Shown: positions 1,070-6,737 of the stretch, one piece after another
How positions within the stretch are numbered: the stretch's first letter is position 1
Layout: every line of letters begins with the position of its first letter
Virus record (IMG/VR): IMGVR_UViG_2737471835_000010
Location: 1-17,644 of that record
Origin: a virus
Lineage: Duplodnaviria; Heunggongvirae; Uroviricota; Caudoviricetes
DNA length: 17,644 bases
Strand: one strand, 5' to 3'
Made by a program: the position numbers and the translations under genes
Notes under the pieces: generated by a model
Databases searched by the model: none
Seen by the model: only the letters and a program-made list of their open reading frames with translations
What the model was told of the DNA's origin: nothing

Positions 1070-1465
1070 ATGATGCTTTTGTCTGAACAAAGGATATTAT
1101 TGGATGAAATGAAAGATATCTTTCCTGAAGAAGATATCTTTCTATTCAATAATGTTTTGGATTTCATTCAAAATAATTATGATAAAAATTATTACCCGAT
1201 TAATGTATTAAGGCAAGCGGCAGGCTGTGAATCGGACTCGGATTTGCTAAAGTTAGTCCGTTATTTTTGTGGTGCACATTCTAAATTATTTAATATAACT
1301 TATTGCTATTATGATTTTGATGGTGAAGAAATCCCTATTTCAGCAGAATGCTACTATAATGCTCTGATTAGTGATATTTCTCCGATCAGTTTATTGTCTG
1401 GGCGCGAAATAGATGATTTCGATGTTAATAACATTTCTTTTTACTGTATATTAAATGTCAAATAA
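1070..1465 (+). CDS. Hypothetical small acidic protein, second gene of AT-rich cassette
   Basis: The ORF track opens at 1028 with a TTG codon. I prefer ATG at 1070, which follows an AAGG Shine-Dalgarno-like motif (1061-1064) and lies after the upstream stop at 1051-1053. The 3' end overlaps the next ORF by 11 nt. No recognisable domain. Confidence 0.5.
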   Translation: MMLLSEQRILLDEMKDIFPEEDIFLFNNVLDFIQNNYDKNYYPINVLRQAAGCESDSDLLKLVRYFCGAHSKLFNITYCYYDFDGEEIPISAECYYNALISDISPISLLSGREIDDFDVNNISFYCILNVK

Positions 1466-2252
1466 TTTTCTTCAAAATATAACACCTGCCGAATTAGCCG
1501 CGCTGGTAAACTTGAAGCCATTCGATGAGGATGTGTTTGTACAAAGTCTATATGCCGATATAAATAATGCAATTAAGCATATTGAGAAGACTGCGGATAA
1601 ATATTATTCAGATGATGAAGATAAGATCACTAATTTACTGGTTTTATTTCTCAAAGGTGTTGGGTACAACGCATCTGAACAAACAAAATCTAATGGTTCC
1701 GTCGATATTACAGTTCAGGATCGTGATCAGAGCTTTACTTGGCTCGCTGAAGCAAAAAGAGGGAATTCGTATAATGGTGTCTTTGAAGGCATGTTACAGT
1801 TAGTAACAAGATATATTTCTGATGAGAAACATGCAGGTTTCTTTATTTACCATCAGAAACTTGATTCATTAAGTTACTTTAAAAATTGGTTCAGCTACCT
1901 TAGCTCTGGTGATTTTGAAAAATATAAGGCTATTTCTGATAGGCTTGATGAGTGCCGATATCATTTTAAAAAGAGCCCCATAGCAAATGCGTTTACCGGT
2001 GATGAATGTTATTTTGACTACAATATAGTTTCAAAAAAGGGAAAAGAAGTAAAGGTTAGAAATTTTATTTTAAGTTTGCACTATAACCCTGCTGATAAAA
2101 GTGGACGAGAGAATAAATCCTTGAAGGTCGGACAAGCGAAAATTTATGTCAATGAAGTGTGTGACAAGTGGTTTCGTGAGCAAGAACCTCCTGAAGATAT
2201 TGATAAATTCATGAATTCACTACAATTAGTATTCCCTGAACTATTTGAATAA
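1455..2252 (+). CDS. Hypothetical protein with PD-(D/E)xK-like nuclease motif (putative effector), third gene of AT-rich cassette
   Basis: 265 aa ORF with ATG at 1455 overlapping the upstream stop. The translation contains GSVDITVQDRDQSFTWLAEAKRG, i.e. an Asp on a hydrophobic strand followed about 15 residues later by E-A-K, the spacing typical of the restriction-endonuclease-like PD-(D/E)xK fold. This is motif-level inference only. Confidence 0.6.
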   Translation: MSNNFLQNITPAELAALVNLKPFDEDVFVQSLYADINNAIKHIEKTADKYYSDDEDKITNLLVLFLKGVGYNASEQTKSNGSVDITVQDRDQSFTWLAEAKRGNSYNGVFEGMLQLVTRYISDEKHAGFFIYHQKLDSLSYFKNWFSYLSSGDFEKYKAISDRLDECRYHFKKSPIANAFTGDECYFDYNIVSKKGKEVKVRNFILSLHYNPADKSGRENKSLKVGQAKIYVNEVCDKWFREQEPPEDIDKFMNSLQLVFPELFE

Positions 2253-2275: not shown

Positions 2276-3262
2276 CTAATTTTTATTTAATGTTGGTGTG
2301 ATGCGTATTTTTCTATCATAAACCATGACTTGTGATTCAGTTTTGTGCCCACTAAATAGCTGCTTTTCTTTTGATGATCCTTCATAGTCAGAAATTCCTT
2401 TAGCTTTCAGATCATGAAATGTACAATCCAGAGGTCTTCCAAGATAGTTGGCTGCCGCTGTTCTTGCTTTTCGCCATGCCTCATTAAACCCCTTGTAAGA
2501 GTAACGCTCTCCATACATGGTTTTAATTACTGACCCTGTTTCCCCCCACGATCTGCAAATATCAACTGCCGCGCGCAGGCGATCAGTCCACGCCTTGATC
2601 TGCTTAACTCCCGTCTTGCCCTGCTGAATAAAAATTCCTTTATCCATTATCTGCGGCCAGTCCATTTTCAAGACATCGGATACCCTCGCTGCACATAAAT
2701 AAGCTATTTCCATTGCGGCTTTAACTGGCTCACTGGCGTGTTCATAAATCGCCATGTATTCCTCATCTGTGATGTAGCGATCACGCTTTGGTTTAGGGAA
2801 TTTATCTACTCCAACGCAAGGATTTCCAGGAACATATCCTCGTTGGTATCCCCAACGAAATACCCGAGACATTGAACTGTGCTCATGGTTAGCTTGGACA
2901 CGACTTTTCTTTCCTCTGGCATCCATATACCGCCTTACATGTTCTGGTCTAATAGTCTTTGCTTCCGCTTCGCCAAAAACAGCAAGGAGATATTTTTCGT
3001 GGGCTAGATAATCCTTTTGAGTTCGTGGTGCCAAATCTGCATAATCGGCACTATTGAGAAATTTCTTCCAAAGCTGGGCAAAAGTTATTCGTCTTTTTCT
3101 CCCCTCTACAATTTTTTCAAAAGCAACCCAGACATCTGCTTTTGTTGCATTGGCTGATGCAATTTTTTCTGTTGTTCCCCCTGGTTTCCAGTAGTAGCCA
3201 GAAGGGCGGAAATATACCCCCTTCGGCATCCATTCATTACCAGGTGCTCGTTTTCGACCCAT
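2276..3262 (-). CDS. int: Tyrosine site-specific integrase (lambda Int family)
   Basis: 328 aa. The N-terminus MGRKRAPGNEWMPKGVYFRPSGYYWKPGG resembles the arm-binding region of lambdoid integrases. The catalytic domain has the typical R...H..R...Y layout (e.g. HDLKAKGIS ... SGHKTESQVMVYDRK). It lies directly next to an xis-like gene. Confidence 0.9.
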   Translation of the reverse strand: MGRKRAPGNEWMPKGVYFRPSGYYWKPGGTTEKIASANATKADVWVAFEKIVEGRKRRITFAQLWKKFLNSADYADLAPRTQKDYLAHEKYLLAVFGEAEAKTIRPEHVRRYMDARGKKSRVQANHEHSSMSRVFRWGYQRGYVPGNPCVGVDKFPKPKRDRYITDEEYMAIYEHASEPVKAAMEIAYLCAARVSDVLKMDWPQIMDKGIFIQQGKTGVKQIKAWTDRLRAAVDICRSWGETGSVIKTMYGERYSYKGFNEAWRKARTAAANYLGRPLDCTFHDLKAKGISDYEGSSKEKQLFSGHKTESQVMVYDRKIRITPTLNKN

Positions 3263-4782: not shown

Positions 4783-5607
4783 TCAGGCGGTGAAAGTACC
4801 AATAAAGGTTTCTACTTTGCTGTCTTTGAATTTCTCAACAAGCAGATCACGAAATTCGTTAGCCATTTCTTCCTGCACCGCCTCCAGCTGAATAATGCGC
4901 AGAACCAGTACAGGACGATCGCCAGTGATAATGCTGAGGCGTAATTTAAATGGACGTTCTTTCAGACCTTCAAACGGAACGCATTTAAATTCAAATGCCA
5001 CTGGCATAATATCTTTGGTTTTCGCTTCGACAGACTCCATCAGGGAGCGTTTGCCGCTGAAGTCATTATCTTCAAAATCAGCGGTCTGGTTTGCTTCAAT
5101 CGTGATTTTACGGACAGCCGCAGCCGCTTTTGTTGCCTGAATAGCGTCACCATTAGCATCAAAGCCCACAAGGTAGTCGGCCCAGTCTTCAATCCATTCT
5201 GCCAGTGACTTCTGGGAATGACGCTCGCCATTAACAGACAACAGAGCAGAGAACGGTGCTGTCTTTTTCAGTTTGAGAGTGGCGGTGTTATCTGCGTGAC
5301 CTGGTTCATCAATAGTACCCAGGTTAAGCACACTGACGGCTCGCATATTATCGGCATCGATAAAGCAGCGGGTGCCTTCATCTGCAAGATCTTTAGAATA
5401 ACGGGTAAAGTCATCGATGCTGGCAGTGGAAAGCGCACCACGGAAACGGAAGCGATTTAAATTAAATTTTTCCAGATCATGAATGCGGAAATTCTCAGGC
5501 AATGCCACAGCATCGGCACCAATCTTACTGATAATTTCATTAACACCCTGAGCAGAAATAAGAGCATGGATTTGATTAATTGCGGTTGCGTCTAAGTTCT
5601 GAGACAT
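4783..5607 (-). CDS. YfdQ-like protein (DUF2303 family), function unknown
   Basis: 274 aa, the same length as E. coli KplE1 YfdQ and in the same gene order as yfdP-yfdQ-yfdR-yfdS. GAGGA lies 7 nt upstream of the ATG. Family assignment is from memory. Confidence 0.7.
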
Positions 5608-5672
5608 AATAAGTCCTCACTATATAAAGATATTCAGTGATGAGATAAATAATCAGTTAATTAAGAACGATA

Positions 5673-6045
5673 TTAATGACCTGCTGCGCGAAGTTTTCCG
5701 TCAGGTTCACCGGCAAGAGTCAGTAATTGTCCCTGGTCTTCCTGCAGAATAGTCAGGCGACCACCGCGATTGACATACATCGGCGTTTCGGTGGTGTCTT
5801 CTTCAGAAATTTTCCCGCGGTTAGTCGGGCGAACATATGAGAGTTTGTGTTTGATTTTCACACGGTTCTCATCAAACGGTTCGATTTCCAGGTTGAGCGA
5901 GACCTTACCTTTGGTTTTCGTGTTCATCACACCGGAAGCGACTTCACTGAGAACAGCGCCGATTTTGGTTTCAAATACGCCGCCGTCCAGCTCCCCGATA
6001 AATGCCTGCACATCAGTACTGCGTTCGCTAGCCATTTTGCTGCTC
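5673..6045 (-). CDS. Hypothetical early-left protein (YfdP-like)
   Basis: The ORF track extends to 6266, but the only start with a ribosome-binding site is ATG at 6045 (GAGGAG 7 nt upstream), giving MASERSTDVQAF... (124 aa). The upstream extension overlaps a highly structured non-coding region. Confidence 0.6.
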
Positions 6046-6083
6046 CTCATCATATCGACCCTGCAAGGTCGGTTGGTTTCTCC

Positions 6084-6172
6084 ACAAAACAGAGAAGAAC
6101 ACCTGCGGTGACTGCCGCCCGGATGGATTGGGTTATGAGCCCGTCGTCCGGTGATGCTCTTCTCTGTTTTGT
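6084..6172. repeat. 15-bp perfect inverted repeat (ACAAAACAGAGAAGA ... TCTTCTCTGTTTTGT) flanking a 59-bp GC-rich spacer
   Basis: Read directly from the sequence: arms at 6084-6098 and 6158-6172. It would form a long hairpin in the 5' leader of the YfdP-like gene, immediately downstream (minus strand) of the terminator at 6173-6218. Confidence 0.6.
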
Positions 6173-6235
6173 AAAAAGAGCGGTACCAGCCGGAAGCAAG
6201 GGTACAAACTGGTACCGCCAAAGCAGTGGCTGTTG
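6173..6235 (-). ncRNA. Candidate small RNA 3' end / intrinsic terminator in the early-left leader (possibly DicF-like)
   Basis: On the minus strand a 10-bp perfect stem (GCGGTACCAG / CTGGTACCGC, 6180-6218) is followed by UCUUUUU. The segment UUUGGCGGUACCAGUUUGUACCC resembles my recollection of the E. coli DicF sRNA. This is unverified memory; extent and identity are uncertain. Confidence 0.3.
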
Positions 6236-6643
6236 TGGTGGGGTTGTCACTCAGGCGTATGGTCAACCTGACAATCCGGTGTCCTCAACGGGGAAAGAGT
6301 AACCCCGCCATACTTACCGCCGCGCCATTTCGCGGATTACCACAACGCTGAGAGCACTTAGCCAGTTACGGCACCACACTTTGTCGCGGCTCCATAAATG
6401 CCCTCATCGTTGCACCCTGGTCTCTTCCCAGGCGTCAAACCGAATCGCCACGCTGGTTAGGCGTCTTATCAGCATCATCATTGACTTGCACATTCCGGCT
6501 ACCTGGTTTGTTTGCCCGAGCAAGGAGTGGATTGTCCCCTTTAACGTCCCCAGACCGCTAACGACGCATGTGCCATACGCCGTGTTACAACCAAATTTTG
6601 TTAGTACCTTGTTTGTTTGTCTGGAAAGAAAGATAAAATGAAG

Positions 6644-6682
6644 TTGCGCATTATGCAAGTGTTTTTGTTGCGAGATATGCAA
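6644..6682. promoter_or_regulatory. Putative OL operators: two 15-bp sites TTGCGCATTATGCAA and TTGCGAGATATGCAA
   Basis: Two copies of a TTGCG-N5-ATGCAA dyad-symmetric motif lie 9 bp apart just downstream of the cI terminator. A third copy (TTGCGCGTTAAGCAA) lies in the cI-cro intergenic region. Confidence 0.45.
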
Positions 6683-6692
6683 TTTAAAGGGT

Positions 6693-6717
6693 AATGAAAA
6701 GCCACCTTTGGGTGGCT
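6693..6717 (-). terminator. Rho-independent terminator downstream of the cI-like repressor
   Basis: Minus-strand hairpin AGCCACC-CAAA-GGTGGCT followed by TTTTCATT, 20 nt after the cI stop. Confidence 0.65.
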
Positions 6718-6737
6718 AATTGATGAGGAGGTAAGGG

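Follow-up and report, generated by a model that had tools for sequence, protein, structure and literature searches.

A terminator hairpin in the early-left leader of an Escherichia coli lambdoid prophage is a probable recombinant relative of DicF, KilS and sRNA-17

The early-left leader of the prophage described here carries a minus-strand hairpin that probably serves as an intrinsic terminator and, at the same time, as the 3' module of a ~175-180-nt RNA, which would derive from the repressor-controlled leader and belong to a recombining superfamily together with DicF, KilS and sRNA-17. We analyzed the whole 17,644-nt stretch of IMG/VR record IMGVR_UViG_2737471835_000010 (hereafter, the window), in which the original prediction, made from the sequence alone, had singled out this hairpin as a possible DicF-like sRNA. 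Judged by its sequence, the element belongs to the DicF/KilS/sRNA-17 group, within which it has diverged and recombined.

The DNA of the window comes from a lambdoid prophage of E. coli, of the SfV/mEp460/CPS-53 type. Several E. coli chromosomes carry the 1.2 kb at 5600-6800 with 100% identity, Stx2c and PhiR phages carry them with 97-99% identity, and phage cdtI has the 211 nt surrounding the hairpin with 99.1% identity. Besides a DUF4224 protein and a yfdR-like gene, both early-left genes, the following features frame the hairpin:

2276-3262: integrase, an early-left gene
4783-5607: yfdQ, an early-left gene beyond yfdP
5673-6035, minus strand: yfdP, the first early-left gene downstream of the hairpin, followed by yfdQ and the yfdR-like gene
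6347-6625, minus strand: non-coding leader common to phage mEp460, with the published 'sRNA-17 promoter' fragment (6347-6596) inside it
6630-6658, minus strand: putative PL, with a -35 TTGCAT (6658-6653), a 17-nt spacer and a -10 TATCTT (6635-6630), as read from the sequence
6644-6658 and 6668-6682: OL, two operator palindromes TTGCG-N5-TGCAA, from a motif search
6700-6717: terminator-like hairpin of the cI-type repressor
6738-7430, minus strand: cI-type repressor (HTH and S24 peptidase)
7528-7788: cro, beyond the repressor; cII is also present

The gap of ~700 nt between the cI-type repressor and yfdP contains no credible ORF, and the candidate ORFs of the leader (e.g., 6404-6682) matched no Pfam or PHROG family. 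The operator motif occurs four times in the window, versus 0.7 expected, and recurs in the cI-cro intergenic region (7451-7465). The putative PL overlaps the operators, its predicted start lies near 6623, and the hairpin is located ~450 nt into the leader under repressor control. The original placement of the hairpin in a repressor-controlled early-left leader thus stands as far as the operators and the cI-type repressor are concerned, whereas PL, which a consensus promoter scan did not flag, is an assignment that we infer from the sequence.

The string quoted in the original prediction matches the minus strand at 6222-6173 exactly, and its description of a terminator hairpin with a 10-bp stem was borne out. 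This hairpin (type B) and the RNA elements around it are arranged as follows:

6081-6175, minus strand: domain 3, in which a helix of 23 bp closes off a small branched interior (inverted repeat and fold)
6173-6178, minus strand: terminator tail C-UUUUU, the expected RNA 3' end, equivalent to the 3' RACE position of sRNA-17 (sequence)
6179-6219, minus strand: type-B terminator hairpin, a 13-bp stem with a 15-nt C/U-rich loop, UGUACCCUUGCUUCC (fold)
6220-6231, minus strand: 12-nt tail AGCCACUGCUUU, single-stranded, linking domain 1 to the hairpin (alignment and fold)
6232-6346, minus strand: domain 1, a structured domain of DicF-precursor type (Qin homology, consensus fold, covariance model and MFE fold)

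Ten Watson-Crick pairs join GCGGUACCAG (6218-6209) to CUGGUACCGC (6189-6180), and the inclusion of G-U pairs extends the stem to 13 bp (6219-6207 with 6191-6179), leaving a loop of 15 nt (6206-6192). When folded in isolation, the hairpin reached -21.2 kcal/mol, as compared to -10.6 +/- 2.4 for 200 dinucleotide shuffles (z = -4.39), none of which (0/200) folded as well; the DicF hairpin is comparable (-15.9, z = -4.2 versus shuffles). With this 13-bp stem and CUUUUU directly after it, the element has the features of a rho-independent terminator, and 3' RACE mapped the RNA 3' end of a sister allele, distinct at a single loop base, to the U-tract (PMC7719688). The 15-nt loop is long relative to the 3-8 nt usual for intrinsic terminators; our terminator scan overlooked the hairpin solely through its 3-8 nt loop limit.

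The hairpin lies opposite an open reading frame on the other strand:

5847-6302, plus strand: ORF of 151 aa, phrog_3651 (E = 6e-97), orf40 in phage cdtI

Were this ORF a genuine protein-coding gene, the hairpin could be incidental, which we consider highly improbable. The PHROG match, a frame that is open in most alleles and its annotation in some phage records all favor a protein; however, NCBI PGAP never called the ORF in the E. coli genomes examined, no Pfam family matches it, its open stretch ranges between 89 and 152 codons, and the SfV and mEp460 contexts have another sequence in place of its C-terminal third. Moreover, the changes at 6055-6203 exhibit no third-position bias (11/4/8 at positions 1/2/3) and comprise 8 synonymous versus 15 non-synonymous changes, and the frame runs antisense to yfdP and to three RNA structures far more stable than shuffles. 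Given its missing Pfam match and PGAP call, variable length and absent third-position bias, we judged the ORF to be probably spurious.

The resemblance to the 3' part of DicF, which the original prediction had noted, proved to be partial: the 5' arm, the U-tail and the locus agree with DicF, but the loop, the 3' arm and the model score do not. A search of Rfam 15 at gathering scores yielded no match anywhere in the window, and the Rfam DicF model (RF00039) yielded none at E <= 10 on 5950-6750 (800 nt). In a 91-nt search, model positions 12-52 aligned to 6222-6178 with 11.9 bits (E = 1.8) against a gathering score of 48, so that the comparison with the DicF covariance model, which the original prediction had itself proposed, failed; as positive controls, the same model scored 76.7 bits on K-12 Qin and 76.4-76.7 bits on phages Evi and PPompW. 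When aligned to K-12 dicF, the 5' arm is identical at 16 of 17 positions and the 3' arm reads CCGC-UC-UUUUU, with the window's UUUGGCGGUAcCAGUUU opposite UUUGGCGGUAuCAGUUU of DicF, and CCGCUCUUUUUA opposite CCGCCCUUUUUA; the window thereby matches the DicF scaffold as UUUGGCGGUAcCAGUUU...CCGC-UUUUU. The first 12 nt of DicF (UUUCUGGUGACG) fall opposite a gap of ~20 nt in the window, and the single-stranded 5' seed UUUCUGGUGAC, through which DicF pairs with xylR, was not found in the window alignment.

The likeness to DicF thus lies in position and scaffold. Both RNAs occupy the slot in the repressor-controlled early-left leader directly after a conserved precursor domain of ~123 nt (89% identity), and both carry a terminator-type 3' end on a common scaffold (UUUGGCGG...CAGUUU...CCGCC-UUUUU; in shared form, UUUGGCGGUAyCAGUUU...CCGC-CUUUUU). 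In both, a closed helical domain follows the hairpin ahead of the first ORF, and the 5' boundary lies at GUUGUGG, the RNase III-dependent start of the 190-nt DicF species. Unlike DicF, the window RNA is devoid of the 12-nt 5' seed used for xylR; its loop is UGUACCCUUGCUUCC rather than UUUUACUCCGUGA, the ACUCCG anti-SD loop of DicF being replaced, and the ftsZ pairing is lost with it; its stem is longer and perfect (GGUACC core); and it is followed by yfdP and yfdQ, in contrast to dicB and ydfD in Qin.

These differences bear on the further claim that the prophage carries a cell-division-inhibiting sRNA module. A functional equivalent of DicF, repressing ftsZ translation and blocking cell division, could draw on the homologous locus, the common scaffold and an AGUUU able to pair with AAACU at the ftsZ start region, yet we regard it as very unlikely in view of the model score (11.9 bits versus a threshold of 48) and the missing ACUCCG loop and 5' seed. 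Since RNAduplex, run without constraints on the entire sRNA and the ftsZ leader, paired distant segments in a meaningless way, for DicF too, we used windowed duplexes, in which the pairing of the window RNA with the ftsZ leader was at chance level (-19.0, versus -19.1 +/- 2.7 for shuffles and -22.9 for DicF). In 18-nt windows, type B reached -10.4, which is among the weakest values in the family, compared to -14.4 for DicF and -18.1 for a variant termed type C, in which 11 nt match the ftsZ ribosome-binding site perfectly (positions -11 to -1). The longest Watson-Crick run between type B and ftsZ is the 5-nt AGUUU, which is buried in the hairpin's own stem. As for operon partners, no DicB or Kil family match was found downstream, where yfdP, yfdQ and the yfdR-like gene are present instead. 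Because the model score is low, the seed and the ACUCCG loop are missing, ftsZ pairing is at chance and dicB/kil are absent, a cell-division module is not supported; the element appears to be without the DicF sequences that silence ftsZ. Translation-initiation regions inside the window fared no better as targets, the best energy being no better than that of shuffled seeds.

Like DicF in Qin, the hairpin is located between two closed domains, and these flanking domains fold far better than shuffles. Domain 1 is closed by a helix of GUUGUGGU (6346-6339) with ACCACAAC (6239-6232) and contains three stem-loops. Positions 6224-6346 share 89% identity (E = 5e-42) with a 123-nt segment of K-12 Qin whose end lies 9 nt ahead of dicF, and covariance model R1 scored 149.5 bits on 6223-6355. 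An alignment of 12 domain 1 sequences, among them those of P1, P7, Salmonella F1055 and pPE4, yielded a consensus of four helices in which 94% of cells are paired, versus 39-61% in slid controls, with six pairs exhibiting compensatory changes and a covariation score above that of all 500 shuffles. A scan of contigs with a 15-mer of domain 1 returned nearly only chance matches in unrelated phyla, E. albertii L154 being the only useful one. One long-range helix is common to the closure of domain 1, the mEp460 body, the SfV body and the K-12 dicF-dicB segment; in K-12, it comprises only ~8 bp in domain 1 and ~24 bp in the dicF-dicB segment, where the reported 3' end of the 72-nt DicF falls inside it. 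On the other side of the hairpin, domain 3 starts inside the U-tract and folds at -49.3 kcal/mol (z = -7.3), and its 23-bp helix is, on the strength of this fold, a candidate RNase III site in read-through transcripts. Two other identities for domain 1 were considered and rejected: a put-type antiterminator of the HK022 kind (R1 finds 0 matches in the whole HK022 genome, and the window has no second copy) and a tRNA-like element (ARAGORN predicts 0 genes in the window, and there is no Rfam tRNA match).

Two IMG/VR scans revealed at least ten tail-plus-hairpin modules that follow domain 1, namely canonical DicF (type A), type B (as in the window), a type-B stem with another loop (L347), type C (L045), type D of E. 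albertii, type E of Salmonella F1055, types F, G and H, and the P1/P7 type. Nearly all of them retain UUUGGCGG...CAGUUU...CCGCC(C)UUUUU, with loops that vary and are for the most part C/U-rich. The type-B hairpin, in turn, occurs behind three unrelated 5' bodies (domain 1 and those of SfV and mEp460), always with CACCACAAC at the junction. By sequence comparison, the window copy is a chimera, in which a DicF-type domain 1 is joined at CACCACAAC to a tail and hairpin of sRNA-17 type; the tail AGCCACUGCUUU sits where DicF has its 5' seed.

A further relative is found in K-12 Rac, where the annotated sRNA KilS (b4833) lies upstream of kilR and scores 39.1 bits with the DicF model, below its threshold. 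KilS was discovered through Hfq RIL-seq chimeras (Bar et al. 2021, PMC8175672), an origin that supports sRNA behavior of members other than DicF. It shares with the window RNA the slot before the first early-left gene and the hairpin scaffold GGCGG...CAGUUU...CCGCCCUUUUU, but has a different loop and a different tail, AUUGCUGUGUGUAGUCC, which matches the RprA model consensus; moreover, no domain 1 precedes it (no R1 match), and it is followed by a dom2/STnc100-like domain and kilR. Going by these scores and sequences, DicF, the dicF of Evi and PPompW (~76 bits), KilS (39 bits) and the window RNA appear to form a graded family. The 'dicF-like region' of P1 and P7 is similar in having domain 1 (R1 94-105 bits; two stems show compensatory changes) and, after it, a tail with a terminator hairpin, all downstream of a repressor-controlled promoter (the leader of the C1-controlled ban operon); it differs in its hairpin, GCCCAUCUUCGGGUGGGC-U7, in residing in a non-lambdoid phage, and in the tRNA genes and ban that lie downstream. 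Hybridizing dicF-related prophage sequences in bacterial genomes were reportedly described by Faubladier and Bouche in 1994, and part of the diversity of the dicF-like family may thus already be on record.

A closely related RNA already described is sRNA-17 of E. coli K1 RS218, which measures 193 nt by 5' and 3' RACE, is Northern-positive, rises in stationary phase and maps to an mEp460-like prophage, adjoining yfdP (PMC7719688). By sequence identity, the type-B hairpin is already in the literature as the 3' part of this RNA (PMC7719688); a full-text literature search for the hairpin sequence yielded no match. We reconstructed sRNA-17 from mEp460 and the supplement of the paper (PMC7719688); on mEp460, its ends are GUUGUGGUGAAUGCG... 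and ...CUGGUACCGCUCUUUU. The final ~70 nt of sRNA-17 (CACCACAAC, tail, hairpin and U tract) are identical to the window but for one loop base (C versus A), the module being present in the window as CACCACAAC-AGCCACUGCUUU-hairpin-CUCUUUU. Also shared are yfdP downstream and, upstream, the leader with the 'promoter' fragment and the qPCR primer sites: the primers of the fragment (6347-6369 and 6575-6596) and both qPCR primers (the forward one at 6575-6596) have exact matches in the window, and of the published primers, AAGCAGTGGCTGTTGTGGTG fits it with 0 mismatches and AAAAGAGCGGTACC... with 1. What differs is the ~120-nt body from GUUGUGG to CACCACAAC, which is specific to mEp460 in sRNA-17 and of the DicF-precursor type (domain 1) in the window. 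In the supplementary alignment of the paper, the window's exact allele (e.g., CP023899, 99.8% identical to the window) is labeled 'degenerative sRNA-17', and the authors reported no Rfam homolog, naming DicF as a general example only (PMC7719688). Because the published Northern probe (best match in the window, 24/50 mismatches) and the deleted segment both lie in the mEp460-specific body, the published functional data do not transfer to the window.

The sRNA-17 mutant itself showed its largest change in the adjacent yfdP and yfdR genes (PMC7719688). According to our mapping of the primer table, the published deletion keeps the hairpin. The resistance cassette of this mutant (pKD3) is presumably oriented toward yfdP, and the 2^6.6-fold rise of yfdP may therefore be a polar effect of the cassette. 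A loss of the terminator was rejected as the reason for this up-shift, since the mutant still has the hairpin and its cassette presumably faces yfdP.

How the 5' end of such an RNA arises bears on its identity. In K-12, the 5' end of the 190-nt DicF species depends on RNase III and lies ~137 nt ahead of mature DicF (PMC10448788); by length, this end falls ~6 nt upstream of GUUGUGG, a position that places the cut within a few nucleotides only. Both the sRNA-17 5' end and the Qin homology block start at GUUGUGG. In addition, the published qPCR amplicon starts 250 nt upstream of the sRNA-17 RACE 5' end, inside the so-called promoter fragment, and therefore a longer leader transcript exists. These data suggest that the published sRNA-17 is a processed leader fragment. 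Sun et al. ascribe sRNA-17 to an ArcA-controlled promoter of its own and not to processing.

Accordingly worded for the window, that alternative holds that the element is an independent sRNA gene, expressed from its own ArcA-repressed promoter just upstream of GUUGUGG and not from a processed PL leader. Sun et al. found that ArcA-P binds the 250-bp upstream fragment in EMSA and that sRNA-17 levels are oxygen- and ArcA-dependent (PMC7719688); the window contains this fragment, and both of its primers match exactly (the ArcA binding itself pertains to the published fragment). An independent start site was also suggested for KilS by global TSS data (PMC8175672). Nevertheless, the forward qPCR primer lies at the far upstream end of the 'promoter' fragment, which indicates that the measured transcript starts further upstream, near the operator-flanked PL; the RACE 5' end coincides with the helix arm of the RNase III-dependent DicF 5' end; and a consensus scan, albeit an insensitive one, found no sigma-70-like site at 6347-6420 of the minus strand. 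We therefore hold a dedicated promoter to be unlikely, and favor the processed leader RNA.

In this processed-leader model, transcription would start at PL and proceed through the leader, and the hairpin would halt a fraction of the polymerases, lowering yfdP-yfdQ expression and giving the RNA a defined 3' end, as 3' RACE in the sister allele suggests. The 5' end would be generated by processing at or near the closing helix of domain 1, like that of the RNase III-dependent 190-nt DicF, and read-through transcripts would be cut in the 23-bp helix of domain 3; RNase III cutting of the flanking helices in this prophage is what we infer by analogy with K-12. The released RNA, with its GC hairpin, U-tail and C/U-rich loop, would probably be bound by Hfq and pair with mRNAs other than ftsZ. 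Most likely, the hairpin terminates transcription in part and forms the 3' module of a leader RNA that is processed and, by analogy with its relatives, possibly binds Hfq. A role in trans for the released RNA, with the loop or the 12-nt tail as its seed, is also argued by analogy, and we put it forward tentatively, as somewhat short of an even chance.

The main rival to a trans-acting sRNA is a function purely in cis, wherein the hairpin is a tL-like leader terminator, the flanking helices are processing or stability signals of the yfdP operon, and the RNA is a by-product. We deem this a serious possibility, though one that we would not bet on. It accords with the absence of a target in the ftsZ leader and in the initiation regions of the window, with the position of the module, always directly before the first early-left gene, and with the mutant phenotype, whose largest change is in the neighboring yfdP and yfdR. 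The loop is, moreover, polymorphic, and because its C/A polymorphism is common among alleles, it provides weak evidence of selection on a seed. On the other hand, relatives built on this scaffold, DicF and KilS, have a trans-acting role or an association with Hfq, and one variant of the family has the 11-nt perfect match to the ftsZ ribosome-binding site. Furthermore, across the family the base of the stem is constant, and the loops vary yet stay C/U-rich and anti-SD-like, which would be unexpected of a mere terminator.

Returning to the processed leader RNA, a broader interpretation is conceivable, though we hold it with less than even confidence: DicF, KilS, sRNA-17 and the window RNA would constitute one recombining superfamily, in which seeds are swapped at the GUUGUGG/CCACAAC arms, type B would be an Hfq-dependent regulator with host targets of its own, and domain 1 would be a new processing-directing RNA. 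Under this same speculative interpretation, which we find no easier to credit in this part, the invariant scaffold UUUGGCGG...CCGCCCUUUUU would serve as a cassette slot next to helix-closed, RNase III-bounded domains, with domain 1 kept from lambdoid phages to P1.

The element is widespread. Of 5426 complete E. coli genomes, 2386 (44%) contain the type-B hairpin and 815 contain the chimeric form of ~180 nt, and neither is annotated in any of them; the 180-nt query matched in part, mostly through domain 1, in 4577 genomes, at up to 9 places per genome, none of them annotated. DicF (1990), sRNA-17 (2020) and KilS (2021) were named separately, yet they share one slot and one hairpin scaffold, and the link among the three is absent from the sRNA-17 paper, the KilS paper and the reviews consulted. 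The window presents a natural chimera of two of these kinds. For annotation, this means that neither the DicF label nor the inference of cell-division control should be carried over to the window element. If the variable loops and tails are indeed seeds, prophages would diversify host-targeting sRNAs through cassette exchange, and one seed type would be sitting unannotated in nearly half of the sequenced E. coli, including the ST131, UTI89 and O157 lineages.

The type-B terminator hairpin in the early-left leader is flanked by structured RNA on both sides, and an ORF runs antisense to these structures. The features of the window considered here are as follows.

Window 6232-6346, minus strand: domain 1, a structured RNA of ~115 nt
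Window 6081-6175, minus strand: branched domain with a closing helix
Window 5847-6302, plus strand: 151-aa ORF, phrog_3651 (E = 6e-97)
Window 6221-6240 and 6575-6596: published sRNA-17 primer sites (PMC7719688)
Window 11545-11559, plus strand: TTGC-N7-GCAA palindrome, fourth exact match

Domain 1, located 5' of the hairpin, consists of three stem-loops and a closing helix, with UCCU always present in the loop of the middle stem. The element is conserved across lambdoid prophages and as far as P1/P7, its sequence differences including compensatory changes, and Rfam contains no family for it. When a 180-nt query was used, 4577 of 5426 E. coli genomes matched parts of it, mostly domain 1. Right after the terminator U-tract lies the second, small branched domain, which is closed by a perfect 23-bp helix, folds at -49.3 kcal/mol (z = -7.3) and also occurs in SfV and mEp460. 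This helix is likely an RNase III substrate in read-through transcripts.

The plus-strand ORF, which is antisense to the RNA structures and to yfdP, is annotated in phage cdtI. Its substitution pattern was not of the coding type, and therefore it is probably a propagated mis-annotation. The same leader was assayed in the sRNA-17 study (PMC7719688), which reported effects of ArcA and oxygen on sRNA-17, and an up-shift of yfdP/yfdR. The qPCR assay used there covers leader from a point that lies 250 nt upstream of where the 5' end was mapped, and the terminator hairpin is still present in the deletion mutant; thus, the reported effects and the up-shift may reflect the whole early-left leader transcript and read-through from the cassette. 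The operator-like palindrome lies within the KilA-N gene region, distant from the immunity region, and may be a chance match.

Related elements were found in other records.

L003 (K-12 Qin) 2752-2874, L005 1481-1618, and L251, L252 and L253: domain 1 copies
L002 (phage mEp460) 6111-6299, plus strand: isrK and C4 antisense RNA (Rfam), antirepressor region
L253 (Actinobacillus phage vB_Apl-pPE4) about 1290-1480, plus strand: type-F module duplication
L045 (IMG/VR UViG_3300036778_000215) 5625-5779 and downstream, minus strand: type-C module
L361 (K-12 Rac) 2906-3003, minus strand: kilS
L361 2723-2909, minus strand: KilS-kilR closed domain
L003 2936-3110, plus strand: dicF-dicB segment
L006 (SfV) 1360-1490, plus strand: SfV body

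The mEp460 matches, isrK (67 bits) and C4 antisense RNA (83.6 bits), are both absent from the window. In vB_Apl-pPE4, the type-F tail-plus-hairpin is duplicated in tandem together with the beginning of the domain that follows it (two copies, about 95 nt each). The rest of this record resembles Rac, with DicA, Kil and exonuclease VIII, an unusual make-up for a phage of Actinobacillus.

The type-C module shares its GGUACC stem with the window, yet its loop, UUUCUCUCCCUUAUUU, holds AGUUUCUCUCC, 11 nt perfectly complementary to ftsZ -11..-1, a better antisense match than DicF's own. KilS is a DicF homolog with a sub-threshold DicF-model score (39.1 bits); the KilS paper (PMC8175672) does not mention DicF. 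The closed KilS-kilR domain gave a sub-threshold match to Rfam STnc100 (28 bits, E = 4e-4) and, judged by eye, has the same 5' end as the dicF-dicB segment and the SfV body, the latter two being homologous and the SfV body sitting upstream of that phage's type-B hairpin. The KilS tail, AUUGCUGUGUGUAGUC, exactly matches the RprA model consensus, and SfV, type C and Salmonella F1055 have tails nearly identical to it; these sequence matches suggest that prophage sRNAs bear RprA-like seeds.
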